Virus record (IMG/VR): IMGVR_UViG_2565956710_000002
Source of the DNA: a virus
Taxonomy: Duplodnaviria > Heunggongvirae > Uroviricota > Caudoviricetes
DNA: 14,827 nt
Direction: 5' to 3' (one strand)
Positions 1 to 14,827 of this stretch are shown in pieces. Positions within the stretch are counted from its first letter, which is position 1; each line of letters starts with the position of its first letter. The notes beneath the pieces are model-generated. The model saw nothing but the letters and a program-made list of their open reading frames with translations, had not been told where the DNA came from and did no database searches. Made by a program: the position numbers and the translations under genes.

Positions 1-1254
1 ATGCTGGAACAAATGGGCATTGCCGCGAAGCAAGCCTCGTATAAATTAGCGCAACTCTCCAGCCGCGAAAAAAATCGTGTGCTGGAAAAAATCGCCGATG
101 AACTGGAAGCACAAAGCGAAAGTATCCTCAACGCTAACGCGCAGGATGTTGCAGACGCGCGTGCCAATGGCCTTAGCGAAGCGATGCTTGACCGTCTGGC
201 ACTGACGCCCGCACGGCTGAAAGGCATTGCCGACGATGTGCGCCAGGTGTGCAATCTCGCCGATCCGGTGGGGCAGGTAATCGATGGCGGCGTACTGGAC
301 AGCGGCCTGCGTCTGGAGCGCCGTCGCGTGCCGCTGGGGGTGATTGGCGTGATTTATGAAGCGCGCCCGAACGTGACGGTTGATGTTGCTTCCCTGTGCC
401 TGAAAACCGGTAACGCGGTGATCCTGCGCGGCGGCAAAGAAACCTGTCGCACTAACGCTGCAACGGTAGCGGTGATTCAGGACGCCCTGAAATCCTGCGG
501 CTTACCGGCGGGTGCCGTGCAGGCAATTGATAATCCTGACCGTGCGCTGGTCAGTGAAATGCTGCGTATGGATAAATACATCGACATGCTGATCCCGCGC
601 GGTGGGGCTGGTTTGCATAAACTGTGCCGCGAGCAGTCGACAATCCCGGTGATCACAGGCGGTATAGGCGTATGCCATATTTACGTTGATGAAAGCGCAG
701 AGATCGCTGAAGTATTAAAAGTGATCGTCAACGCGAAAACTCAGCGACCAAGCACATGTAATACGGTAGAAACCTTGCTGGTAAATAAAAACATCGCCGA
801 TAGCTTCCTGCCCGCATTAAGCAAGCAAATGGCGGAAAGCGGCGTGACGTTACACGCAGATGCTGCTGCGCTGGCGCAGTTGCAGACAGGCCCCGCGAAG
901 GTGGTGGCGGTTAAAGCCGAAGAGTATGACGATGAGTTTCTGTCATTAGATTTGAACGTCAAAATCGTTAGCGATCTTGACGATGCCATCGCCCATATTC
1001 GTGAACACGGCACGCAACACTCCGATGCGATCCTGACCCGCGATATGCGCAACGCCCAGCGTTTTGTTAACGAAGTGGATTCCTCCGCTGTTTACGTTAA
1101 CGCCTCTACGCGTTTTACCGACGGCGGCCAGTTTGGACTGGGGGCGGAAGTTGCGGTAAGCACACAAAAACTCCACGCGCGCGGCCCAATGGGGCTGGAA
1201 GCACTGACCACTTATAAGTGGATCGGCATTGGTGATTACACCATTCGTGCGTAA
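1..1254 (+). CDS. proA: gamma-glutamyl phosphate reductase (glutamate-5-semialdehyde dehydrogenase)
   Basis: Full 417-aa ORF starting at ATG at position 1; translation is recognisable as enterobacterial ProA (aldehyde dehydrogenase fold, host-like GC). Followed by tRNA-Thr as in the E. coli proA-thrW locus. Confidence 0.95.
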
Positions 1255-1608: not shown

Positions 1609-2799
1609 ATGATGCTGAATGCCCGCAAGGTTGAAGCTGCGAAAGGAAAAGAGAAGAGCTACAAGCTGTTTGATGGAGGTGGCCTATACCTTCAGGTCGA
1701 ACCTAATGGCTCGCGTTACTGGCGTATGAAATACCGTTTTGCTGGTAAAGAGAAACGATTGTCCTTTGGTGTTTATCCAACAGTCACACTTGCTGATGCC
1801 AGACAAAAACGAGAAGACGCGAAGAAACTACTCGCAGCAGGTGAAGATCCCGGCGAAGTCAAAAAAGCCAAAAAGCAGGCTTTAAATGCAGCGAGTGAGA
1901 CACTTAACCCATTCAGAGAAGTGGCGTTAGAGTGGCACAAAATGAAATCACCCAAATGGTCTGAGGGCTATGCTTCCGACATCATTGAGGCATTCGAGAA
2001 AGACATTTTCCCGCATATTGGGCACAGACCTATAGCTGATATTCAGCCCCTTGAACTGCTTGAAGTTCTGAGGTTGATAGAAGCTCGAGGCGCTATGGAG
2101 AAAGCGAAGAAAGTCCGTCAGCGATGCGGTGAAGTTTTTCGCTATGCCATCGTAACGGGTAGGGCAATCTACAATCCGGCACCGGATCTTGCCAGTGTGA
2201 TGCAAGGACATGAAGCAGTCCACTATCCATTCCTCAAAGCCAACGAACTACCGGAGTTCTTTAATGCCCTTAATTCTTATTCAGGAAGTCCAATTGTATT
2301 GTTGGGGGCGCATTTACTTATCCTGACAGGTCTACGAACTGGAGAACTACGAGCAGGTGAGTGGCGAGAGGTGGATTTTGATAATGCGGTGTGGGAGATC
2401 CCAAAAGAACGTATGAAAATGCGTAGGAGCCATATTGTCCCGTTGTCAAAACAAGCATTATCCCATCTCAAAAGTTTGAAAGAACTAACTGGGAACTACC
2501 CGCTGATGTTCCCTGGACGCAACGATCCCAGCAAATTTATGAGTGAAGCAAGCATTAATCAGGTGTTTAAACGTATTGGATATGCAGGGCGTGTTACGGG
2601 GCATGGTTTCAGGCATACGATGAGTACAATCCTACATGAGAAAGGATTTAACAGCGCTTGGATTGAAACCCAGCTTGCTCATTCGGACAAAAACTCTATT
2701 CGTGGAATTTATAACCATGCCCAATATCTCGAAGGGAGAAGAGAAATGATGCAATGGTATGCTAATTATTTATCTGAGCAAATTGGTACTCATAAATGA
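1609..2799 (+). CDS. int: tyrosine recombinase, P4-type integrase
   Basis: The ORF track gives 1540-2799 from a TTG; I place the start at the ATG at 1609 (MMLNARKVEAAKGKEKSYKLFDGGGLYL...) because it aligns with the N-terminus of the second integrase at 14489 (MKLNARQIDTAKPKEKAYKLADGGGLYL). The C-terminal catalytic region has HxxR (GHGFRHT) and the family layout. Sits next to the tRNA att site. Confidence 0.9.
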   Translation: MMLNARKVEAAKGKEKSYKLFDGGGLYLQVEPNGSRYWRMKYRFAGKEKRLSFGVYPTVTLADARQKREDAKKLLAAGEDPGEVKKAKKQALNAASETLNPFREVALEWHKMKSPKWSEGYASDIIEAFEKDIFPHIGHRPIADIQPLELLEVLRLIEARGAMEKAKKVRQRCGEVFRYAIVTGRAIYNPAPDLASVMQGHEAVHYPFLKANELPEFFNALNSYSGSPIVLLGAHLLILTGLRTGELRAGEWREVDFDNAVWEIPKERMKMRRSHIVPLSKQALSHLKSLKELTGNYPLMFPGRNDPSKFMSEASINQVFKRIGYAGRVTGHGFRHTMSTILHEKGFNSAWIETQLAHSDKNSIRGIYNHAQYLEGRREMMQWYANYLSEQIGTHK

Positions 2800-3620
2800 A
2801 TATTTTAAAAATTAATAATACTGATTCTCTGCTCAGAGATTACTACCAGTTGGATGAAGCTTCAGAAAAAATTGGTTGTAGTGAAAAGGATATACTCTGG
2901 TTTGCCAGAGAACGAGATGTAGAGCTATGCATGGAATTCCATGATGATGAGTATGATGTTTCATGTGGTTTGAAGATTGATGGTCAAATGGATGAGTTCT
3001 TATCTAATCTGAAATATTTACCACGAGATAGAAATGGCAATATTATGTTGTCAGACTTAAGTTCTATAAGAATCCCTGATGAAGATAATTTAATTGATAA
3101 AAATGGTTTTATTCGATGCTTCATATCCGGTTTATGGGCTGTTGATTATGAATATAAAGATCTGTTAGTTAAGCATGAGGGGCAACCGGATTCCTGGCCT
3201 ATTCATTTTCTACTGGCGGGTACGCCTAATATAAATTGTAAGGTAATTCTTTATGTAAATTATGATGAAAAAGAAAATTATTATCTTTTTGAGGTTTTGT
3301 GGATTACAAAGGTACAGATTCAAAAATTCATTGATATAGTCTTATGCGAACAAAAGCGGATAAAAAACGCCAATAAATATAAATCACAATCTGAGGCGCA
3401 AAAACAAAAACATGCTGTTCCTCGAGCTGAAATACTCATGGCTATTATTTCGCTCTATCATCGTGATATGAGGCTAAGAAGAGAGAGTCCAGCAGCGATA
3501 GCTGATTATCTTTTTCAACATGCCAGTGAGTTCTGGCCTAAGACCGGAGAACCGCCTTTGAGCTATGATACTGTTGTTAGTTTGCTACGTAGTTGCATGA
3601 AAAACATTAAGTTTAACTAA
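2796..3620 (+). CDS. hypothetical protein (274 aa), AT-rich, translationally coupled to int
   Basis: ATG at 2796 overlaps the int stop (ATGA). Strongly AT-rich compared with int and alpha (judged by eye, not computed). No motif I recognise. Confidence 0.7.
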   Translation: MNILKINNTDSLLRDYYQLDEASEKIGCSEKDILWFARERDVELCMEFHDDEYDVSCGLKIDGQMDEFLSNLKYLPRDRNGNIMLSDLSSIRIPDEDNLIDKNGFIRCFISGLWAVDYEYKDLLVKHEGQPDSWPIHFLLAGTPNINCKVILYVNYDEKENYYLFEVLWITKVQIQKFIDIVLCEQKRIKNANKYKSQSEAQKQKHAVPRAEILMAIISLYHRDMRLRRESPAAIADYLFQHASEFWPKTGEPPLSYDTVVSLLRSCMKNIKFN

Positions 3621-3745: not shown

Positions 3746-4036
3746 ATGTTATCTAAACATGATAATACTACTTTGCAACGACCTTCAATGGATTCTCTGA
3801 TCGATATGAAGTTTATTACTTCCGATTGTTTATTAAGTGATAAATGGATTTATCGATTGATTTCTCTGAATCGCTTTCCAAAACCTATAAAAATAGGTCG
3901 GATGTCACGATGGCGCGCTGCTGATTATTATAAGTGGCGAGATGGGTTTGAAGAAAACTCAGGTCAACAGTTTGAGGGGATGAGAAATAAGGCAAGAGCA
4001 ATTAATAAAGGGAATAGATTATCACCTACTCCCTAA
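3746..4036 (+). CDS. AlpA/Vis-like helix-turn-helix regulator (prophage excisionase-like)
   Basis: Segment MKFITSDCLLSDKWIYRLISLNRFPKPIKIGRMSRWRAADYYKW resembles the AlpA family HTH (FPKPIKxG-RSxRW...W). GGAG lies 8 nt upstream of the ATG at 3746. An inverted repeat GTGGCTAATGA/TCATTAGTCAC (3635-3671) is upstream. Confidence 0.65.
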   Translation: MLSKHDNTTLQRPSMDSLIDMKFITSDCLLSDKWIYRLISLNRFPKPIKIGRMSRWRAADYYKWRDGFEENSGQQFEGMRNKARAINKGNRLSPTP

Positions 4037-4068: not shown

Positions 4069-4242
4069 TTAGCCTTTAGGGTCAATCCCGCGTGATTGGA
4101 GTTCTTTGCGTAAAATTCTTTTAATCCAAGTTGCCAACGCGCTATCTCCATCTTTGCGCATTTCGTTTTCGAGTTGCAACCTAAAATCGTCGGTAAGACG
4201 CATTTGGAATGGTGGAGAACGTTTCTCTTGTGGTGTTGACAT
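4069..4242 (-). CDS. Arc/Mnt-type ribbon-helix-helix DNA-binding protein (57 aa), putative satellite repressor
   Basis: Hand translation of the minus strand: MSTPQEKRSPPFQMRLTDDFRLQLENEMRKDGDSALATWIKRILRKELQSRGIDPKG. The pattern F-x-h-R-h...G-x-S-x-x-x-x-I-x-x-x-L matches Arc/Mnt (FNLRWP...ENGRSVNSEIYQRVM). Not in the ORF track because it is under 60 aa. Its start codon lies inside operator copy 1. Confidence 0.6.
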   Translation of the reverse strand: MSTPQEKRSPPFQMRLTDDFRLQLENEMRKDGDSALATWIKRILRKELQSRGIDPKG

Positions 4243-4264
4243 GGTAATTACCCTAGAATATGAT
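4236..4264 (+). promoter_or_regulatory. sigma70-type promoter (TTGACA-N17-TATGAT) for the rightward early operon
   Basis: TTGACA at 4236-4241, a 17-nt spacer, then TATGAT at 4259-4264. Predicted transcription start is near 4271, reading toward the early operon that starts at 4374. Confidence 0.55.
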
Positions 4265-4282
4265 GACTACATGGTAATTACC
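4239..4282. promoter_or_regulatory. tandem palindromic operators (2 x ACATGGTAATTACC, 30-bp period)
   Basis: Exact 14-mer at 4239-4252 and 4269-4282, each containing the perfect palindrome GGTAATTACC. Copy 1 overlaps the -35/spacer, copy 2 overlaps the predicted +1. Adjacent to the RHH gene. Confidence 0.5.
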
Positions 4283-4310
4283 ATTGTAAGTATAGTTCGC
4301 TTGTAAAAGC

Positions 4311-4345
4311 AATGCCCGATTGTGCGGGAACACAAATCGGGCATT
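4311..4345 (+). other. strong stem-loop in the early-operon leader
   Basis: AATGCCCGATTGTG (4311-4324) pairs with CACAAATCGGGCATT (4331-4345): 11 bp, a one-nt bulge, then 3 bp, with loop CGGGAA. No U-tract follows. Confidence 0.45.
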
Positions 4346-4373: not shown

Positions 4374-4550
4374 ATGGCTAAACAGAAGTGTACCTGGTTA
4401 TTTGCGGCGATCAACCGCAGTCAACGCAATGCCCGTCCTGTGATGTTAAGGATCACCGCAGATAACGAGCGGTCAGCGCGGCGCAGACTTGCCCCGGACT
4501 ATGTACTGAGCTTTGCCGGGCGCATTCCCTGCGGAGGTGAACATGCGTAA
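4374..4550 (+). CDS. small protein (58 aa), first gene of early operon; function unknown
   Basis: ATG at 4374 with AGAGG 8 nt upstream. Translation: MAKQKCTWLFAAINRSQRNARPVMLRITADNERSARRRLAPDYVLSFAGRIPCGGEHA. The stop overlaps the next gene's start region. Not in the ORF track (under 60 aa). Confidence 0.45.
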   Translation: MAKQKCTWLFAAINRSQRNARPVMLRITADNERSARRRLAPDYVLSFAGRIPCGGEHA

Positions 4551-4902
4551 TTATCCGCATCCCGGCGAACGCTGGCAGCATGAACGTGGCTGGACGGTCA
4601 CGATTATCCGATTAATAGAAGCCTCGCCCTCTGTGGCGCTGGTTAATCCTGAATTCAGCTGTGAAGTGCTGATACGTCATGACAGCGACAACCAGCTTTC
4701 TTCCTGCCCTCTGGCATGGTTTGAACAGCGATATACGCGCCTGTTTGATGTACCGCTCTTTAAGCCTGCACCAGCTCCTGCAGGCGGTAGTGGTTCCGGC
4801 CCGCTGACACTGCATCCGTCTGTGCTATTTATCCGCTGGCGGGAGCGTAGCATATGGCGTTCTGCTGAGCCTGATGACGGTCACTATTCAAAGTTTCTCT
4901 GA
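4543..4902 (+). CDS. hypothetical protein (119 aa from the ATG; ORF track extends to a TTG at 4513)
   Basis: ATG at 4543 preceded by GGAGG with a 5-nt spacer. Contains a flexible PAPAPAGGSGSGP linker. Phage-like GC. Confidence 0.55.
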   Translation: MRNYPHPGERWQHERGWTVTIIRLIEASPSVALVNPEFSCEVLIRHDSDNQLSSCPLAWFEQRYTRLFDVPLFKPAPAPAGGSGSGPLTLHPSVLFIRWRERSIWRSAEPDDGHYSKFL

Positions 4903-4933
4903 CACAATACCGCTGAAAACGGAGTAATCCACG

Positions 4934-5218
4934 ATGAATATTTCAAACGGGCACAACGGTGCTCAGGGCCACACTTTGCCTGAAAAACACAATACCGGTG
5001 TTTTTGCCTATGGGTTGTCAGAGGACAGTTTCGGAAAGCTGACCCGCGCAAGAAATGCCTGCGACATGCTCCAGCTTCTCTTTTCTGAATACCCGTCTCA
5101 GGCCGGAGCACTGGACACTGGCTGTGCGCATGGTGTCGCCGCGCTGATGGAGTACCTGCTGGCAGATTTGACGGATATTGCACACAGCTGCGCACTGATT
5201 GAAGGAGGTTCCAGATGA
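4934..5218 (+). CDS. hypothetical protein (94 aa), early operon
   Basis: ATG at 4934 with GGAG upstream; the stop overlaps the next start (ATGA at 5215-5218). Confidence 0.6.
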   Translation: MNISNGHNGAQGHTLPEKHNTGVFAYGLSEDSFGKLTRARNACDMLQLLFSEYPSQAGALDTGCAHGVAALMEYLLADLTDIAHSCALIEGGSR

Positions 5219-5598
5219 ACCAGCCGCAGGTTTCCATTTTCCCGGCAGAAATGACCACCGCGCTTTACCGGCGGGCTATTGCTTCAGCATGGCGGCAGAA
5301 AATGCTGAACGAAACTGGCAGTGATCAGTATGGTCCGCACAGCCTGACGGTGGAGCGTATTGAAATGGCCATTGCGCTGCATATCGAGTGCGTACTGATT
5401 AACGAGTACGGCGAAGCACAGGGCGCCGCTGCCGCGCTGGCACTGCTGACTGACATGCTGGAGCCGTCACTGCTGACCGCGCCGCCGGTACTGACCGCGC
5501 GCGGCTGTGAAGTGATGGCGGAGATGTACCGCACGCTTCCGGCGGCCTTTGATGACTTCTGCAGTACCGGTGTGACGTTGTATCAGGGGGAAGTATGA
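5215..5598 (+). CDS. hypothetical protein (127 aa), early operon, coupled to the primase
   Basis: ATG at 5215 preceded by GAAGGAGG. The stop overlaps the alpha start (ATGA at 5595-5598). Confidence 0.65.
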   Translation: MNQPQVSIFPAEMTTALYRRAIASAWRQKMLNETGSDQYGPHSLTVERIEMAIALHIECVLINEYGEAQGAAAALALLTDMLEPSLLTAPPVLTARGCEVMAEMYRTLPAAFDDFCSTGVTLYQGEV

Positions 5599-8267
5599 CA
5601 ATACAGACGGTTACGCAGATTTCAGCCGCCGCACGGGGGAAATGGCCCGTTATTCTCCAGATGCTGCGTATTGATGTACCTGAAAACGGCAGGCACGGTC
5701 CCTGCCCGAAATGTGGGGGCAAGGATCGTTTTCGCCTTGATGACCTTGACGGGCGCGGGACGTGGATCTGCAGCCAGTGTGGCAATGGTGACGGTCTGGA
5801 TCTGGTTAAGCTCGTAACCGGTTACAGCGTCAGAAAGGCTGCGCAGGAGGTGGCGCAGGTGCTTAATGTGCCGGATGTGCAGGAACTGCCTGTTAAGCCT
5901 GCCAGACAAAAAGCCCCTAAACGCGACATGGGTCTTACCGTGGCGGCGCTGATGAAAGAGAGCCACACGGGAGAAAGCGCCTATCTGACAGGAAAAGGGT
6001 TCGCCGGATACCCGGCCTCTCTGACCGGAAGCGTGCAGCATATCAGCGGTAAGGATTTTCCTGCCGGTTCCCTGCTGTTACCACTCACGACCAACACCGG
6101 AGCCGTGACTGGTGCACAGCTTATCGCCCCGACGGGTGAAAAAAGCATACTGCCCGGCAGCACGATGAAAGGCGCGTTTGTGTCGCTCAGCCCGTTACCG
6201 TCTGAACCACCGGTACAGGTGGTGATTACCGAAGGTTACGCTACGGCGCTGACGGTAAGTCAGCTCACTGCCGGATGCGTAGTGGCTGCCATATCTGCGG
6301 GCAACCTGCCCAATGTGGCGCAGTCGCTGCGGGCACGCTGGCCTGAGGTAAAAATTATCATCGCCGGTGATAACGATTTTCAGGACGGAGGTGAGAATCC
6401 CGGCAGAGCCTTTGCTGAACGGGCGGCAAAAGCTGTTGGCGGCTGGATGACGCTGCCACCAGGAGAGATTAAGGCTGACTGGAATGACTTTCATCGGGAG
6501 CACGGTATTACCCGTGCCCGTGAAGCCTTTCGCAACGGTCTGGTACTGTGCGGGGAAGGCCGCACGCAACTGCCGCACGGGTTCCGTCTTACCCAGGAAT
6601 ATCTCTGGTATGAAAAGCAGGTACAGCGCAACGGTGAGACGGAGATCCAGAACGTCAAAATATGCAGCCCGCTGCGCGTGACGGCAATCACCTGCGATGC
6701 CGATGGCGGTAACTTCGGACGACTGCTGGAATGGGAAGATACGTGGGGTGAGTGTCGCCGCTGGGCGATGCCGATGGAAATGCTGAGCGGCAGTGGTGAG
6801 GAACTGCGCCGGGTACTGCTGGTTAACGGGCTGTCTTATATCAGCACCACCGGTGAGGCACGCGCACGCCTGATGGAATATATCTCACTGTGTAAACCGG
6901 AACGCCGCGTGACCTGCGTCAGTCGTACTGGCTGGCATGGTCAGGTTTACGTCCTGCAGGATGAGGTCAGCGGTGAAGGTGCAGAGGGTGTCATTCTCCA
7001 GACCACTTCCGTGCAGGGGCGTGATTTCCGCGTGTCGGGCACAACAGAGGAATGGCGGGAGCATGTATCCCGCTACTGTACCGGCAACTCCCGCGTGGCA
7101 TTTGCTGTCAGCCTGGCCTTTGCTGCACCACTGTTACGGCTGGTTGGTATGGACGGCGGCGGCTACCACCTCAAAGGGGAATCGACAGACGGTAAGACCA
7201 CCACCATGAAAGCGGCAACCTCCGTCTGCGGCGGGCCTGACTACTGGCAGACATGGCGGGCCACCGGCAACGCGCTGGAGGGATGCGCCAGCCGCCGCAA
7301 CGATGCCGCCATGATGCTTGATGAGATCCGGGAAGTTGACGGACGCGAGGCAGGCAATATCGCCTACATGCTGGCAAACGGTCAGGGCAAAGGCCGTGCC
7401 GGTACGGACGGTGAGCTGCGTACCCGTAAGCAGTGGCGCCTGTTGTTCTTTTCAACTGGCGAGTTGTCTCTGACCGAACATGCGGCAAAGGCCGGTGAGC
7501 GTACTTTTGCCGGGATGGAAGTCAGGATGATCCAGATCCCCAGCGATTCCGGGAAGTTTGGCGTTTTTGAGGAGCTGCACGGCTTCGACAGCGGCAAGGC
7601 TCTGGCAGAGCATCTTGAATGGGCCACGTCCTGCTACTACGGTTCGCCGTTCCGGGAGTGGCTGAAAGCACTGACCGCTGATCTTAACGGACTAACGGCA
7701 CAGGCAAAATCGCTGATGAAGGAATATGCTGCCGCCCTGACTCCGAAAGATGCAGGCAATCAGGTGGGCCGGGCTGTGAACCGCTTTGCTCTGGTGGCGA
7801 TGGCAGGTGAACTGGCAACCCGTCTGGGTATCACCGGCTGGCCTGAGGGTGAAGCACTGCGGGCAACCCGCGTCTGCCTGAACGCATGGCTGAAAGATCG
7901 CGGGCACACCGCCAATCAGGAAGATATCGCCGCACTGGAGCAGGTTCGCAGTTTCTTCACCGCGAATCAGTACAGCCGCTTTGCAGACTGGTATGACGAG
8001 CGCAACCGCCCCGGCAATATGGTGGGCTGGCGCAGGGTGGAGAAAGGCAGTACCGCGCAGGGCACGGAAGCTGTCACTACGTTCTATGTCATGCCGTCCG
8101 GCTGGAAAGAAATCTGCAGGGGATTTGACCCGCGCAAGGTGGCGCGTCTGTGCGCAGATCGTGGATACCTGCTGCCCTCCACTGATGGCAAACTCCAGAC
8201 AACCATTCGCCCGCCAGAGATGAATCCCCGCAGGCTCTATGTCTTCAACAGCGAGGTGCCGGGTTAA
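5595..8267 (+). CDS. P4 alpha-type primase-helicase (zinc-ribbon + TOPRIM primase + P-loop NTPase)
   Basis: 890 aa. N-terminal zinc ribbon CPKCGG...CSQCG; TOPRIM motifs ITEGYATAL and IIIAGDNDFQDGGENPG; Walker A GESTDGKTT. An iteron array follows immediately downstream. Confidence 0.9.
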   Translation: MTIQTVTQISAAARGKWPVILQMLRIDVPENGRHGPCPKCGGKDRFRLDDLDGRGTWICSQCGNGDGLDLVKLVTGYSVRKAAQEVAQVLNVPDVQELPVKPARQKAPKRDMGLTVAALMKESHTGESAYLTGKGFAGYPASLTGSVQHISGKDFPAGSLLLPLTTNTGAVTGAQLIAPTGEKSILPGSTMKGAFVSLSPLPSEPPVQVVITEGYATALTVSQLTAGCVVAAISAGNLPNVAQSLRARWPEVKIIIAGDNDFQDGGENPGRAFAERAAKAVGGWMTLPPGEIKADWNDFHREHGITRAREAFRNGLVLCGEGRTQLPHGFRLTQEYLWYEKQVQRNGETEIQNVKICSPLRVTAITCDADGGNFGRLLEWEDTWGECRRWAMPMEMLSGSGEELRRVLLVNGLSYISTTGEARARLMEYISLCKPERRVTCVSRTGWHGQVYVLQDEVSGEGAEGVILQTTSVQGRDFRVSGTTEEWREHVSRYCTGNSRVAFAVSLAFAAPLLRLVGMDGGGYHLKGESTDGKTTTMKAATSVCGGPDYWQTWRATGNALEGCASRRNDAAMMLDEIREVDGREAGNIAYMLANGQGKGRAGTDGELRTRKQWRLLFFSTGELSLTEHAAKAGERTFAGMEVRMIQIPSDSGKFGVFEELHGFDSGKALAEHLEWATSCYYGSPFREWLKALTADLNGLTAQAKSLMKEYAAALTPKDAGNQVGRAVNRFALVAMAGELATRLGITGWPEGEALRATRVCLNAWLKDRGHTANQEDIAALEQVRSFFTANQYSRFADWYDERNRPGNMVGWRRVEKGSTAQGTEAVTTFYVMPSGWKEICRGFDPRKVARLCADRGYLLPSTDGKLQTTIRPPEMNPRRLYVFNSEVPG

Positions 8268-9411: not shown

Positions 9412-9959
9412 CGGCCCGAGGCACGCCTGACCAGGCACTTACCAGTTTTCGGAATGCCCGCATTCTGTGGGCCGGACATAATGAGAGCCGAAAAGCCGTT
9501 GAACAACAGATAACATCTCTCCTCGCTGCCACAGAAAAACCAGCAGATTATGCCCGACAGCTCGAATTACTGCGGGAACGTCTGGATGTGCTGAAATGGC
9601 AAATTAACTGTGCTGCGCGCGAATGCATTTACTCGCAGCATTTACTGATGGAGGCCTGCACAGAAGCCGCTCTCAGCAATTTTATGCAGGCGAATGGGGC
9701 AGCCCTGACATCTGCACTGGCTCCGTTCCTGAAGGGGCGCGGAGGGGTTGACGTTGCGTCCCGTATATTACGCAGTGCTCTGGTTCGCCAGCTGGCAATA
9801 ACACCGCCTGAAATTGCTGGGGATTATCGTGAGATCCTGGATGAATCCGGTTTGATGCCTGACCCCGGGATGATTCGTGATTGCCAGGGTTCTTACACCC
9901 CGGCACAACATCTGCGTTTTCAGCAACGCCTGAATGACATTAACGATATACAGGAGTGA
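9408..9959 (+). CDS. putative Psu-like protein (polarity suppression / capsid decoration); assignment tentative
   Basis: 183 aa, start overlaps the upstream stop (ATGA). Segments KWQINCAAREC, FMQANGAALTSALAPFL and YTPAQHLRF match my recollection of P4 Psu. Sits between the sid-like and ogr/delta-like genes. Confidence 0.6.
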   Translation: MTARGTPDQALTSFRNARILWAGHNESRKAVEQQITSLLAATEKPADYARQLELLRERLDVLKWQINCAARECIYSQHLLMEACTEAALSNFMQANGAALTSALAPFLKGRGGVDVASRILRSALVRQLAITPPEIAGDYREILDESGLMPDPGMIRDCQGSYTPAQHLRFQQRLNDINDIQE

Positions 9960-10631: not shown

Positions 10632-11909
10632 ATGAACCGTCAGCCGTTTACTTCAGCAGCACTTAAACGAAACTTAAGTGAAAGTGAGAAGGCTTATTAT
10701 TTTAAAAAAAATAATGTTGCTGAGTTAGAATCATTAATTAGTGATGCCGTTTTAATTGCTAATGAGAATTTTCGCTCTGGTGTGAGTGTAAAGAAACTAA
10801 ATATTAAGGGACGCTGCGTTTACACTGCTTCATGTTTGAAGGAAAAAATAATACTTAGACATTGCAATGCAAATTTAAAATGCCTTGAATCGCTTCGTCC
10901 CAAACAACGAAATACAATAATTAGTGAGCTTAAAATTTATTTGGAAGAAGGTACTCCATTCAAAATATATCGTTTGGATATAAAGTCTTTCTTTGAATCA
11001 ATTGATTTACCGCAGCTTTTTCAGCTCTTACATAACGAAACACGACTGTCTAGACATACAAAAAATTTGCTAGAATGGTATCTTAAATCGTGTGAAAGGC
11101 TTCACTCTTCGAAAGGATTACCTAGAGGGTTAGAAATTAGTCCTATGTTATCAGAATTGTACTTGGCACAATTTGATAATAGTATTCATAGGCATCCAGA
11201 AGTATTTTATTATTCAAGATTTGTAGATGATATGGTAATCGTTTCAAGTGGTTGTGAATGTGAAGCGTCCTTTATGGAATTTATACAAGATGTATTACCA
11301 AAGGGATTGGCTTTAAATAAAAATAAATTAAAAATATCTCCATGCATACCAAAGAGAAGTAAGGGTTCAAATAAACAGGATAAATTGCTTCATGAATTTG
11401 ACTTTCTAGGGTACTCGTTTTCTATAATAGACACACCTTTGAGCAAAGATGGTGAGATTAATAGCTGTTACAGAAAGGTTGTTGTTAATTTATCTAAATC
11501 TCGCCTGAAGAAAATTAAAACAAGAATAGCTAGGTCTTTCTACTCTTATCATATTAATGGTGATTTTAAACTATTGCTAGACAGGATTTCTTTTTTGACT
11601 AGCAACAGGGATTTAAATCGCAAAATAAAATCGTTAAGTTCTTTAGAAAAAAGCAAGATAAGTACAGGTATTTATTACAGTAATGCGAAGTTAGATGTTG
11701 ACTCCATATCCCTAAAAAAATTAGATGACTTTTTGCTATATTGTGTGCAATCTAATACTGGGCGTTTGAATAGTGTTGCAAAAAAACCTTTTAATTTGAA
11801 GCAAAAAAAAGAACTGCTAAGAAATAGTTTTAGAAAAGGCTTTGTGGATAGAGTATATAGAAAGTATAACTTTAAGCGCTATACTGAGATTACAAAAATA
11901 TGGTTATAA
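10632..11909 (+). CDS. reverse transcriptase 1 (425 aa), first gene of dual-RT operon; UG3-like by architecture (unverified)
   Basis: RT motifs read from the translation: motif 2 YRLDIKSFFESID (D116), motif 4 GLPRGLEISPMLSELYLAQFD, motif 5 FVDD (D199-D200, nt 11226-11231), motif 7 FDFLGYSF, plus a ~170-aa C-terminal extension. Strongly AT-rich. Overlaps the next gene by 10 nt. Confidence 0.85.
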   Translation: MNRQPFTSAALKRNLSESEKAYYFKKNNVAELESLISDAVLIANENFRSGVSVKKLNIKGRCVYTASCLKEKIILRHCNANLKCLESLRPKQRNTIISELKIYLEEGTPFKIYRLDIKSFFESIDLPQLFQLLHNETRLSRHTKNLLEWYLKSCERLHSSKGLPRGLEISPMLSELYLAQFDNSIHRHPEVFYYSRFVDDMVIVSSGCECEASFMEFIQDVLPKGLALNKNKLKISPCIPKRSKGSNKQDKLLHEFDFLGYSFSIIDTPLSKDGEINSCYRKVVVNLSKSRLKKIKTRIARSFYSYHINGDFKLLLDRISFLTSNRDLNRKIKSLSSLEKSKISTGIYYSNAKLDVDSISLKKLDDFLLYCVQSNTGRLNSVAKKPFNLKQKKELLRNSFRKGFVDRVYRKYNFKRYTEITKIWL

Positions 11910-13918
11910 AGAAAAACATTAAACTTGATAAGAAAGATTATCTCAGGGCTTTACTATGTGATACACTGCCCGGTGATTGTCCAATTATTTTTTCAAATGA
12001 TGGCTTATATATAAACTTAACAGAATATGATAGAGTTTGTAATGATTTGTTACATTTTACTCCGGTTTCTTCTTTCTTAAAAAAAATAGTTAACCCTAAT
12101 TTAGACTCTTCTATTAGTGTCGCAGATCGCCACCGAGAAAAGAAGAAACAAAGCTCCCCATTTGGCTATTGTATAGTAAAAGATGCCTTTAGCCAAAGAC
12201 ATCTTTCTTTAATTCACCCAAGATCTCAAATTAATTATTCGGAATTTTATAAAACATACTCATCCGTTATCACATTAAATACTTTAAAAAGTAATTTTTC
12301 TATTCGCTACCCACGTAAGGTCGCTAACTCTTTCTTTTTATATGAAAATAATGCTTTGGAAAAATATAAAGGGGAAGATATCGAAACAACAAAGGATGAG
12401 TTAATGAGGAAATATTCATCCTCTTATTTTAGTTATGGCGGTTTCAACAGGATATATAAACTATTTCAAAGTAAGATGTTTATTGAGCTTGAGAAAAGAT
12501 TCTCGGTGATGTGGATGTTAGATGTATCACATTGTTTTGATAGCATATATACGCATTCGGTTTCTTGGGCATTAAAAAATAAATCATATATCAAAAAACA
12601 TGTTAAACACAGCAATCAATTTGGACAAGAATTAGATACACTGATGCAACGTAGCAATAATAATGAAACAAATGGAATACCTATTGGTTCAGAGTTTAGC
12701 AGGGTTTTTGCAGAATTAATATTTCAGCGAATTGATTGCAATATTGAGTCATGCCTTCTTAGTGAACATGGATGGGTTAATAATAAAGATTATGTTATAT
12801 TGAGATATGTAGATGATTTTATTGTTTTTTGTAATGGTGAGTCAAGTGCCGAAGTTATTACAAAAATAATTAATGTGAAGTTAAATGAATATAATCTACA
12901 ATTAAATGTAAACAAGCTTAAGAAGTATTCTAGGCCATTTTGCACTAGCAAGACAAGTTTGATTGTCAAAGTTAATGAATTAATTCGCAATTTAGAAATT
13001 AAACTGTATGAAAAACGTGATAGTGGCTTTACTTTAAATAAAATAAGAAGTAAGCATGATTTAAAGATATATGTAATTAATCATGTCAAGTCTATATGCA
13101 TTGAAAATCAAGTGTCTTATTCTGATGTTTCATCATATATAATATCATCTCTTTCCAAAAGATTAATATCAATAATTGATATATTACGAGTTCAAGAAAA
13201 TGAAGATGATGTAGATGTAAAAAAAAGGATTAAGGACTTAATTTTCACAATAACCGATATTATGTTGTTCTTTTTCAGTGTTAACCCAACTGTTTCATCA
13301 TCTTATAAATTATCAAAGACAATGGTTGTTGTTAATAACTATTTGAATGAAATATCTAGTGACTATAGTAGTATTTTTATGACTACGTTAGTGAATACTG
13401 CGGAAAACATTAATTTTGGTGAGAATGATAATGGGCTGTTTATTGATGATTTCATTTCAATTGAAAAGGTTAATTTAATCTTGGCTGCTACTTTTTTTGG
13501 AGATAATTATCTTATAAGTGACAGTTTTTTTCATGGAGTTATACATAAAAAGAAATTGGACTACTTTACTATAATCTCACTGCTATTCTATTTTAGAAAC
13601 AGAAGATCATTCCGAAAATTGAAGTGTATAATAGAGGGTGAAATAAAGGAAATATTAAGTTCTAATATGGATTTGCTGCAATCATCGGAAAAGGCACATT
13701 TATTTTTGGATGTCATGTCATGTCCATTTGTCTCAATAGAGACAAGGCGTTTTTTATATAGAAAATATCTCAAGAGCTATGAGCCAAAGCTGAACAGAAG
13801 TCATCTGGAGATTGAGAATGATTTGCAATCTCTGCTTCAAACATATTGGTTTGTCAAGTGGGATGAGTTAGATATTGTGAAAATGATTGAGAAAAAAGAA
13901 TTGAAAGAAAGCTATTAA
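11900..13918 (+). CDS. reverse transcriptase 2 (672 aa), second gene of dual-RT operon; UG8-like by architecture (unverified)
   Basis: Motif 2 WMLDVSHCFDSIY (D208), motif 4 GIPIGSEFSRVFAELIFQRID, motif 5 YVDD (D305-D306, nt 12812-12817). About 200 aa N-terminal and 350 aa C-terminal extensions with no recognisable nuclease domain. ATG at 11900 overlaps the upstream stop at 11907-11909. Confidence 0.85.
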   Translation: MVIKKNIKLDKKDYLRALLCDTLPGDCPIIFSNDGLYINLTEYDRVCNDLLHFTPVSSFLKKIVNPNLDSSISVADRHREKKKQSSPFGYCIVKDAFSQRHLSLIHPRSQINYSEFYKTYSSVITLNTLKSNFSIRYPRKVANSFFLYENNALEKYKGEDIETTKDELMRKYSSSYFSYGGFNRIYKLFQSKMFIELEKRFSVMWMLDVSHCFDSIYTHSVSWALKNKSYIKKHVKHSNQFGQELDTLMQRSNNNETNGIPIGSEFSRVFAELIFQRIDCNIESCLLSEHGWVNNKDYVILRYVDDFIVFCNGESSAEVITKIINVKLNEYNLQLNVNKLKKYSRPFCTSKTSLIVKVNELIRNLEIKLYEKRDSGFTLNKIRSKHDLKIYVINHVKSICIENQVSYSDVSSYIISSLSKRLISIIDILRVQENEDDVDVKKRIKDLIFTITDIMLFFFSVNPTVSSSYKLSKTMVVVNNYLNEISSDYSSIFMTTLVNTAENINFGENDNGLFIDDFISIEKVNLILAATFFGDNYLISDSFFHGVIHKKKLDYFTIISLLFYFRNRRSFRKLKCIIEGEIKEILSSNMDLLQSSEKAHLFLDVMSCPFVSIETRRFLYRKYLKSYEPKLNRSHLEIENDLQSLLQTYWFVKWDELDIVKMIEKKELKESY

Positions 13919-14310: not shown

Positions 14311-14335
14311 GTTCGACTCCTATTATCGGCACCAT
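14311..14335. repeat. att core direct repeat, copy 2 (junction between the two tandem elements)
   Basis: Exact 25-bp copy of the tRNA 3' end (1421-1445), followed by arm motifs similar to those after copy 1. Confidence 0.8.
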
Positions 14336-14488: not shown

Positions 14489-14827
14489 GTGAAACTCAAT
14501 GCCCGTCAAATAGACACTGCCAAGCCAAAAGAGAAGGCTTACAAGTTGGCTGATGGTGGTGGTCTGTACCTCCTGGTAAAACCTGGTGGAGGAGAATATT
14601 GGCGTCTCAAGTATCGTGTAGCTGGTAAAGAGAAGCTGTTAGCACTAGGTGTGTATCCTGAGGTCACCTTAGCTGATGCTCCTGCAAAACTTGAAGAAGC
14701 TAAAAGAGGTATCTCTGGGGGAATCGATCTGATGGAAGTGAAGCGAGAGGAAAAGATTGCCCGGGAAACGCAGTTAAACAACACCTTCAAAGATATTGCC
14801 CTTGAGTGGCACAGTAACAAATTATAA
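14489..14827 (+). CDS. second P4-type integrase, N-terminal 112 codons ending at an in-frame TAA (likely truncated or disrupted)
   Basis: GTG start. MKLNARQIDTAKPKEKAYKLADGGGLYLLVKPGGGEYWRLKYRVAGKEK aligns with the first integrase N-terminus. Reading frame ends EWHSNKL-TAA at 14825-14827, where the first integrase continues for ~290 more residues. Confidence 0.7.
   Translation: MKLNARQIDTAKPKEKAYKLADGGGLYLLVKPGGGEYWRLKYRVAGKEKLLALGVYPEVTLADAPAKLEEAKRGISGGIDLMEVKREEKIARETQLNNTFKDIALEWHSNKL

Follow-up and report, generated by a model that had tools for sequence, protein, structure and literature searches.

The stretch of DNA analysed here, referred to as the window, is the 14,827-nucleotide viral record IMGVR_UViG_2565956710_000002, which contains a P4-like satellite prophage. 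Ahead of the replication operon of this satellite lies a small minus-strand gene (4069-4242), which starts with ATG and encodes a 57-residue protein of the ribbon-helix-helix (RHH) type, MSTPQEKRSPPFQMRLTDDFRLQLENEMRKDGDSALATWIKRILRKELQSRGIDPKG. It diverges from a near-consensus promoter on which two palindromic sites are placed, and a predicted antisense RNA covers the ribosome site of icd, the first gene of the operon. We consider it probable that these three parts, namely the early promoter, the RHH protein with its operators and the antisense RNA, form a cassette that controls the early operon of the satellite, with the RHH protein as the candidate repressor. As far as binding to DNA, repression, autoregulation and production of the antisense RNA are concerned, this reading is inferred from sequence, predicted structure and comparative data. 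The open reading frame (ORF), its length and its orientation away from the early operon agree with the preliminary description of this locus, in which the system had been presented as an Arc-like repressor with tandem operators.

The early promoter (4236-4264, plus strand) consists of TTGACA (4236-4241), a 17-bp spacer and TATGAT (4259-4264), with a predicted start near 4271. It agrees with the consensus at 11 of 12 positions and is the best promoter-like site between 3600 and 4800. The 14-mer ACATGGTAATTACC occurs exactly twice, at 4239-4252 and 4269-4282 (30 bp from start to start), and each copy contains the perfect 10-bp palindrome GGTAATTACC (4243-4252 and 4273-4282), as had been reported; the second copy was found to be a perfect 14-bp palindrome, ATGGTAATTACCAT (4271-4284), and the two sites together form a 12-nucleotide inverted repeat. 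When up to three mismatches were allowed on both strands, the 14-mer gave six matches in the window, four of which are the two palindromic sites read on both strands. The same search on shuffled sequences gave 1.28 +/- 1.23 matches, and six were reached in 1 of 200 shuffles. No other copy of the site was detected in the window beyond the early promoter. Candidate operator 1 (O1, 4239-4252) takes in the last bases of the -35 element, 11 bp of the spacer from its beginning and the CAT (4240-4242) that is complementary to the start codon of the RHH gene, whereas candidate operator 2 (O2, 4269-4284) lies over the predicted starts of both divergent promoters. The promoter and its overlaps with the two copies are thus as originally described.

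The coding nature of the small ORF is apparent from a comparison with 14 homologues, in which the differences at codon positions 1, 2 and 3 numbered 192, 109 and 409, respectively, a bias that indicates a coding sequence under purifying selection. On this bias and on homologues conserved across many genera, the ORF is judged to be a real gene. Its RefSeq entry is the hypothetical protein WP_001605077.1, and homologues of 56-58 residues were found in Enterobacterales, Pasteurellaceae, Orbaceae and Aeromonadales relatives. The AlphaFold model of the protein (predicted local distance difference test score 78.5) has the RHH fold, with an extended N-terminal strand and two helices joined by a tight turn. 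No strand was called by DSSP on the monomer model, as expected for a lone chain; RHH proteins are obligate dimers, in which the two strands pair as an antiparallel sheet that enters the major groove.

Profile searches pointed to the same superfamily, with matches that are weak and consistent. The protein matches PHROG 228, 'Arc-like repressor', weakly (E = 0.003), and the Pfam Arc family is matched by 13 of 41 homologues (best E = 1.5e-4). More distant relatives, obtained in an exhaustive search, match HicB (1.6e-5), RHH_5, RHH_1, NikA-like and Arc models. This search of representatives returned only 40 sequences at E <= 0.001, and the family is narrow. Among PDB profiles, those of the RHH proteins HP0222, CopG and AmrZ matched best (E = 0.3-0.7), and hhalign places the protein against P22 Arc in the expected register (PQFNLRW against PPFQMRL) with a probability of 18-22%. 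For the Arc family proper (PF03869, cut-off 20.4 bits), the window protein gave no match and the homologue from E. coli O157 reached 14.3 bits. Of the Arc/Mnt-like character that had been assigned to the protein, the RHH fold thus stands, and membership of the RHH superfamily is well supported; assignment to the Arc family proper is marginal, below the cut-off. Among the matches listed from a profile search of a 5.8-billion-protein collection, only close family members appeared, none with a precomputed Pfam domain, and they provided no transitive link. A direct PDB sequence search retrieved only designed helical-repeat proteins, which we rejected as compositional artefacts.

The upstream region of the RHH homologue was read in 68 loci from other species. 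A recurring layout was observed: a TTGACA-type -35 element shares bases with the start codon of the small gene, a palindrome is centred 12 bp from the start of the -35 element, a TAnnnT -10 element follows at a spacer of 17-18 bp, and a second palindrome lies mostly 30-31 bp after the first (range 27-35). The position of O1 relative to the -35 element is the same in nearly all related loci. As the promoter and its two sites recur in this arrangement in about 60 loci of other genera, the layout cannot be attributed to chance.

The sequence of the palindromes varies between these loci, and its classes track the N-terminal arm and beta-strand of the protein. Operators of the class GGTAATTACC are paired with SP[PQ][FY]QMRL, those of the class TTGTAATTACAA with KTDQYQ[IL]RL, those of the class GGTATATACC with SPQFPMRL and those of the class GTGTAATTACAC with NPPFQFRL, while helix B and the tail are nearly invariant. 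Where the central base pairs are ATAT instead of AATT, Q13 is replaced by proline. In the hhalign alignment, Q13 is aligned with Asn11 of Arc, a residue that contacts bases. The RHH protein is still 66-80% identical and the operator class is the same in loci where AlpA, integrase, Icd and primase are undetectable or less than 45% identical; since these flanking genes are unrelated, shared ancestry is disfavoured as the source of the co-variation. To the right of about 4340, two loci, L059 and L060, share 94% identity with the window, whereas the RHH protein and operator class on their left side are different, a mosaic that resembles an immunity-region swap in its sequence pattern. These two loci had also been considered as a means of separating the RHH protein from AlpA. 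They were discarded for this purpose because the breakpoint near 4340 swaps the whole left arm, and the separation is provided by the loci with unrelated flanks instead. Sequence comparison thus places symmetric sites on the core promoter, at a conserved position and co-varying with the residues that would read DNA, as cognate operators would be, and the two palindromes are best interpreted as putative operators of the RHH protein.

Residues 36-57 (4069-4137), with the sequence LATWIKRILRKELQSRGIxPKG, comprise helix B and the C-terminal tail and hardly vary between clades of different operator specificity, which hints at a conserved protein-protein contact, either for cooperativity or with a protease or an anti-repressor. 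About seven residues follow helix B, where the RHH core ends. With regard to binding stoichiometry, the preliminary description had invoked dimers of dimers on tandem sites, as for Arc and Mnt. This could not be established, the sites being 30-31 bp apart and each being itself a palindrome of 10-14 bp. The Arc tetramer occupies a single 21-bp operator whose half-sites are spaced by 11 bp, and the 30-bp separation of the two palindromes in the window is unlike that arrangement. Each palindrome could be bound by one dimer or, on 7-bp half-sites such as those of the omega repressor, by two.

A promoter for the RHH gene may be placed at 4283-4312 (minus strand), with a -10 element TACAAT (4288-4283), an 18-bp spacer, a -35 element TTGCTT (4312-4307) and a predicted start near 4276, inside O2. 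In all listed loci with GG-type operators, a minus-strand TAnnnT hexamer abuts O2 and a TTGnTT element lies 16-18 bp upstream. The predicted starts of the divergent promoters are about 5 bp apart and O2 lies between their -10 elements, so that occupancy of O2 would affect both promoters. Autoregulation by the RHH protein is plausible from this arrangement of sequence elements. Two further observations concern the same segment. The sequence TTGTAAGTATAG at 4285-4296 resembles a degenerate third operator, and several related loci have a good TTGTAATTACAA-type site 12 bp past operator 2, overlapping the -10 element of the RHH promoter.

The locus had been presented as a protein-based switch, a view that has to be corrected in that the protein is not its only component, as a conserved SymR-like antisense RNA is predicted over the ribosome site of icd. 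Two hairpins lie in the leader that separates the early promoter from icd, a long one (4311-4345) and a small one with the Shine-Dalgarno sequence in its loop, and both co-vary across genera. The consensus structure has an energy of -22.1 kcal/mol on the minus strand versus -13.3 kcal/mol on the plus strand, with 93.2% versus 84.5% paired cells and 87 versus 24 wobble cells. Compensatory changes were present in 14 pairs on the minus strand, and the observed values were reached in none of 500 shuffles. The hairpin is followed by a T-run on the minus strand alone (on average 5.6 T in 9 nucleotides, versus 1.3 on the plus strand). Energy, pairing, compensatory changes and T-run together assign the functional structure to the minus strand. 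The leader hairpin was also considered as a sense RNA of the P4 CI/C4 type or as an attenuator; this was rejected, as there is no C4 or isrK match, no plus-strand T-run and better pairing on the minus strand.

The predicted cis-antisense RNA runs from 4379 to about 4301 (minus strand, about 75 nucleotides). Its 5' end is complementary to icd codons 1-2, and it comprises a 5' hairpin with an anti-Shine-Dalgarno sequence, followed by a terminator hairpin (4345-4311) and a T-run (4308-4305). It is complementary to both the start codon and the Shine-Dalgarno sequence of icd, and its predicted folding energy is -28.5 kcal/mol (z = -4.97). Its promoter would lie inside icd (4387-4414, minus strand), with a -35 element TTGATC (4414-4409), a 16-bp spacer, a -10 element TACACT (4392-4387) and a predicted start at 4379, that is, icd +6. 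Among 40 distinct sequences, the T, A and final T of this -10 element, at icd +19 to +14, are kept in 40, 39 and 39, respectively, although the overlapping icd codons encode different residues. The terminator hairpin of the RNA also overlaps the -35 element of the RHH promoter.

The Rfam symR model (RF01809) matches at the same place and on the same strand in the window (31.6 bits) and in three other loci (42.1, 27.8 and 26.7 bits in L009, L008 and L057, respectively); none of the four reaches the Rfam gathering score of 61 bits. R1, a covariance model built from the antisense RNA alignment with satellite sequences only, recovers Escherichia coli K-12 SymR at full length, with 35.9 bits and an E-value of about 7.5e-6 (9836-9912 of locus L073). 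K-12 SymR starts at +6 of symE (PMC1891008), and in L073 symR begins at 9836, where the symE ATG occupies 9841-9839. Both RNAs measure about 77 nucleotides, have a promoter inside the target ORF, start at +6 and fold into an anti-Shine-Dalgarno hairpin followed by a terminator hairpin. For the window RNA, the cis-antisense position, the +6 start, the 5' hairpin and the intrinsic terminator after it are all predicted features. The antisense RNA is therefore SymR-like in predicted architecture and in sequence, and outside the family by the Rfam cut-off. The two systems differ in their targets, since SymE/SymR, which resembles a type I toxin-antitoxin pair, acts on the AbrB-fold protein SymE, whereas the target in the window is an Icd/Kil-like protein; transcription is under LexA in the former and would be under the RHH protein in the latter. 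SymR and the satellite antisense RNAs may have a common ancestor, or SymR may have arisen from them. K-12 symR sits in the hsd-mcr 'immigration control' region.

The immunity RNAs of P4 were searched for directly. No match to C4 (RF01695) or isrK (RF01394) was obtained in the window at E <= 1, and P4 itself, as a positive control, gave 74.9 and 60.8 bits, respectively. Among 31 related loci scanned, C4 and IsrK-like RNAs were found only in three Pasteurellaceae loci (L037, L043 and L045), alongside the RHH cassette. In these loci they lie at about 2470-2740 (minus strand), downstream of the cassette and ahead of a true Icd-like ORF, which shows that the protein system and the P4-type RNA system can coexist.

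DNA relatives of the cassette occur in 653 of 5426 complete E. coli genomes (about 12%), and the cassette is not restricted to P4-like elements. It is also present in a capsid-forming Pasteurella element and in an element with capsid genes in O157:H7 strain ECP17-46 (NZ_CP040572.1; locus L072). In the latter, the RHH homologue (6001-6174, minus strand) is unannotated in RefSeq, is covered by a spurious 'Icd-like' pseudo-coding sequence on the opposite strand and is accompanied by the ACATGGTAATTACC pair, 30 bp apart. A satellite in strain CFT073 (L074; NC_004431.1 from 1380001) has a 59-residue protein of the YlcI/YnfO family at the equivalent position (473-652, minus strand). At about 690-851 of this locus, two GTGGGCCACACCT repeats flank the -10 element of a TTGACG-N17-TATAGT promoter, and the locus carries the same SymR-like RNA (49.6 bits). 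The CFT073 locus suggests that repressor modules are interchangeable.

The window is E. coli DNA, with 100% identity to several complete genomes. It contains a 12.9-kb P4-like satellite prophage inserted at tRNA-Thr(CGU) (1369-1444) and bounded by a 25-bp direct repeat, the attachment (att) repeat, which corresponds to the 3' end of the tRNA gene (1421-1445 and 14311-14335). The assignment relies on the integrase, AlpA/Vis, alpha primase, Sid, Psu and Delta proteins (by Pfam), the tRNA site and the att repeats; a clear epsilon/Ash homologue was not identified in the element. The integrase gene (1540-2799) is at the left end, followed by a 274-residue ORF (2796-3620, plus strand) for which no family match was found in Pfam, PHROGs or NCBIfam. 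The AlpA/Vis-like gene (3746-4036, plus strand; Pfam Phage_AlpA, E = 4e-4; PHROG excisionase/transcriptional regulator) is convergent with the RHH gene and is a possible source of read-through transcription towards it. A sequence scan placed a terminator-like hairpin downstream of the RHH gene at 4009-4034 (minus strand).

The early operon (4374-8267, plus strand) is composed of ORFs that abut or overlap. It begins with the icd/kil-like gene (4374-4550; NCBIfam phage_ICD_like, E = 5.5e-24), continues with three small ORFs (4543-4902, 4934-5218 and 5215-5598, the last being DUF5375) and ends with the P4 alpha-type primase gene (5595-8267; Pfam DUF927, Toprim and Zn_Ribbon_Prim), all on the plus strand. 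Genes for Sid-like, Psu and Delta proteins, recognised by Pfam, lie to the right of the primase gene. Further right, two reverse-transcriptase genes (10632-13918, plus strand), annotated as drt3a/drt3b (antiviral DRT3) in an identical genome, occupy the hotspot that is flanked by delta and the right attachment site. Beyond the right repeat, a second integrase gene follows directly (14489-14827), which indicates another element in tandem.

In view of the predicted fold, the conserved layout, the co-variation, the unrelated flanks and the absence of C4 and IsrK matches, repression of the icd-to-primase operon by the RHH protein, as originally proposed, is well supported by inference. The near-consensus sigma-70 promoter would drive icd/kil, the three small genes and the alpha primase gene. 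The RHH protein would recognise O1, in the -35/spacer region, and O2, at the start site, through its N-terminal arm and beta-strand (residues about 8-16) and would thereby shut the promoter; as O2 also lies over the start of its own gene, the protein would limit its own synthesis. A constitutive antisense RNA of about 75 nucleotides would pair with the Shine-Dalgarno sequence and start codon of icd, leaving leaky transcripts of the toxic gene untranslated. In the prophage, the cassette would prevent expression of the replication operon; it would also silence an incoming element of the same operator class, and its three parts together would do the job done in P4 by the IsrK-like and C4 RNAs (seqA and CI). 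Induction could be brought about by transcription that reads through the RHH gene from the AlpA promoter, in analogy to PLL of P4, or by a helper-encoded factor.

Several known systems resemble this arrangement in part. P4 and the window share the order of promoter, kil/icd, small ORFs, DUF5375 and alpha primase, and in both a silent alpha operon in the prophage would be the outcome. The leader between PLE and kil of P4 encodes the CI RNA (C4) and seqA (IsrK-like), which act on the PLE transcript ahead of kil and are known as the immunity factors that silence the alpha operon (PMC3632133). Unlike the window, P4 has neither an RHH gene nor palindromic operators between vis and PLE, and its immunity RNA is processed from the sense leader, whereas the window RNA is a cis-antisense RNA from the opposite strand. 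The immI region of P22, with Arc, Mnt and the overlapping divergent promoters Pant and Pmnt, is related only by the marginal similarity of the window protein to Arc noted above. The single 21-bp site of Arc is replaced in the window by two separate palindromes, and Arc and Mnt control an antirepressor, whereas the operon assigned to the window protein is a replication operon with an added antisense RNA layer.

The logic is also that of plasmid copy-number circuits, such as CopG with RNAII in pMV158 and CopB with CopA in R1, in which a small repressor acts on the rep promoter and a short antisense RNA blocks translation of the leader. CopG is likewise an RHH protein. In these plasmids, the repressor gene is co-transcribed with the rep gene, whereas in the window it is divergent and belongs to a phage satellite, and there is no homology beyond the RHH fold. 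In Gram-positive phage-inducible chromosomal islands, the master repressor genes stl and rpr are divergent from the excision/replication operon (PMC6092414), as the gene of the candidate RHH repressor is in the window. In contrast to the small RHH protein, the Stl repressors are large helix-turn-helix proteins that lose their activity on binding proteins of the helper phage.

A number of observations nevertheless weigh against control by the three-part cassette. The 57-residue protein passes no curated Pfam or NCBIfam cut-off, and Foldseek returned no matches with the first monomer model. Shared descent is a partial confounder of the co-variation between protein and operator. The -35 element of the RHH promoter is poor (three of six positions), the promoter was not flagged by a consensus scan, and it is not evident in clades with TG-type operators. 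Coexistence with C4 and IsrK in Pasteurellaceae means that the cassette need not be the sole or principal immunity factor. Induction of Gram-negative satellites has been explained through the activator AlpA, without a repressor, and a global repressor is described there as unclear (PMC6092414); no repressor is mentioned in the preprint on capsid-forming islands. A description of the RHH protein or of the RNA was not found in the literature on P4-like, island and capsid-forming-island elements, the coverage of which was incomplete and does not prove absence.

Alternatively, the antisense RNA might be the main silencer, as RNA is in P4 and P1, and the RHH protein an accessory regulator that confers no immunity on its own, either Cro-like or, like Mnt, a promoter-choice factor that directs RNA polymerase away from the early promoter and to the promoter of its own gene. 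The degree of conservation of the antisense promoter and structure is no lower than that of the operators, the same RNA accompanies a different small protein in the CFT073 satellite, and the Pasteurellaceae members keep C4 and IsrK. Nevertheless, we regard this explanation as unlikely. The RNA covers only the translation start of icd and, unless translation and termination are coupled, could not stop transcription from a promoter that agrees with the consensus at 11 of 12 positions. The location of O1 in the -35/spacer region is a classic position for repression, and the division of proteins and operators into several specificity classes is reminiscent of immunity types.

It is very unlikely that the RHH protein serves instead as an antitoxin-like partner of the toxic Icd/Kil protein, in an autoregulating toxin-antitoxin module that stabilises the element rather than switching its life cycle. 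Antitoxins are numerous among RHH proteins, distant relatives match HicB, MazE and CopG-antitoxin models, some sources name the family HicB-like, and Icd-like proteins inhibit cell division according to their family name. However, the features of a type II antitoxin are missing from the locus, as the RHH gene is divergent from icd and not co-transcribed with it, and the stretch of about seven residues beyond helix B leaves no room for a toxin-binding domain. Moreover, the first ORF past the promoter is not Icd-like in many loci, and the operon under control would include the primase gene.

We give still less credence to the proposal that the 14-mers bind another factor, such as AlpA/Vis, integrase (as arm sites), the primase (as iterons) or a host protein, and that the ORF is unrelated to them. 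The P4 alpha protein binds short origin repeats, according to the repeat annotation, and P4 Vis binds P4 promoters. However, the operator class follows the RHH class where homologues of the AlpA, integrase and primase of the window are undetectable, the sites are confined to the early promoter within the window, and the two-fold symmetry of an RHH dimer fits palindromes of 10-14 bp. That the ORF is not expressed and owes its conservation to overlapping regulatory DNA or RNA can practically be dismissed, since its lack of annotation in some RefSeq genomes and its weak promoter and ribosome site are outweighed by the strong third-codon-position bias, the conservation of length, start and stop across genera and the confidently predicted helix-turn-helix core.

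A wider interpretation of the three-part cassette can be put forward only tentatively, and we hold it to be rather doubtful at present. The RHH protein, its operators and the SymR-like RNA might constitute a mobile, exchangeable immunity cassette and, as such, the missing master-repressor module of Gram-negative satellites. Such a module would serve P4-like elements and capsid-forming islands, probably also classical islands, and its small protein could be of another kind, for example of the YlcI/YnfO type in CFT073. Helper phages or AlpA-driven read-through would overcome it and thereby induce the satellite, possibly via helix B and the C-terminal tail, which are nearly constant (WIKRxLRKELxxRGIxPKG).

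As a molecular device, the locus is an ordinary circuit of an RHH protein and its operators. The feature is real and forms a coherent regulatory device, which adds a new family and a new context to a familiar circuit, together with an unexpected antisense RNA partner; once confirmed, it would be of importance for research on satellites. P4 is the textbook case of RNA-based prophage immunity; here, a small gene would supply a protein repressor, and an antisense RNA would act as a safeguard on the toxic first gene. If this is true, the cassette would define immunity types among satellites, the mosaic swaps at the promoter would be explained, simple handles for the study of satellite induction, namely mutations of the operators and deletion of the gene, would become available, and chromosomal SymR would be linked to a family of satellite antisense RNAs.

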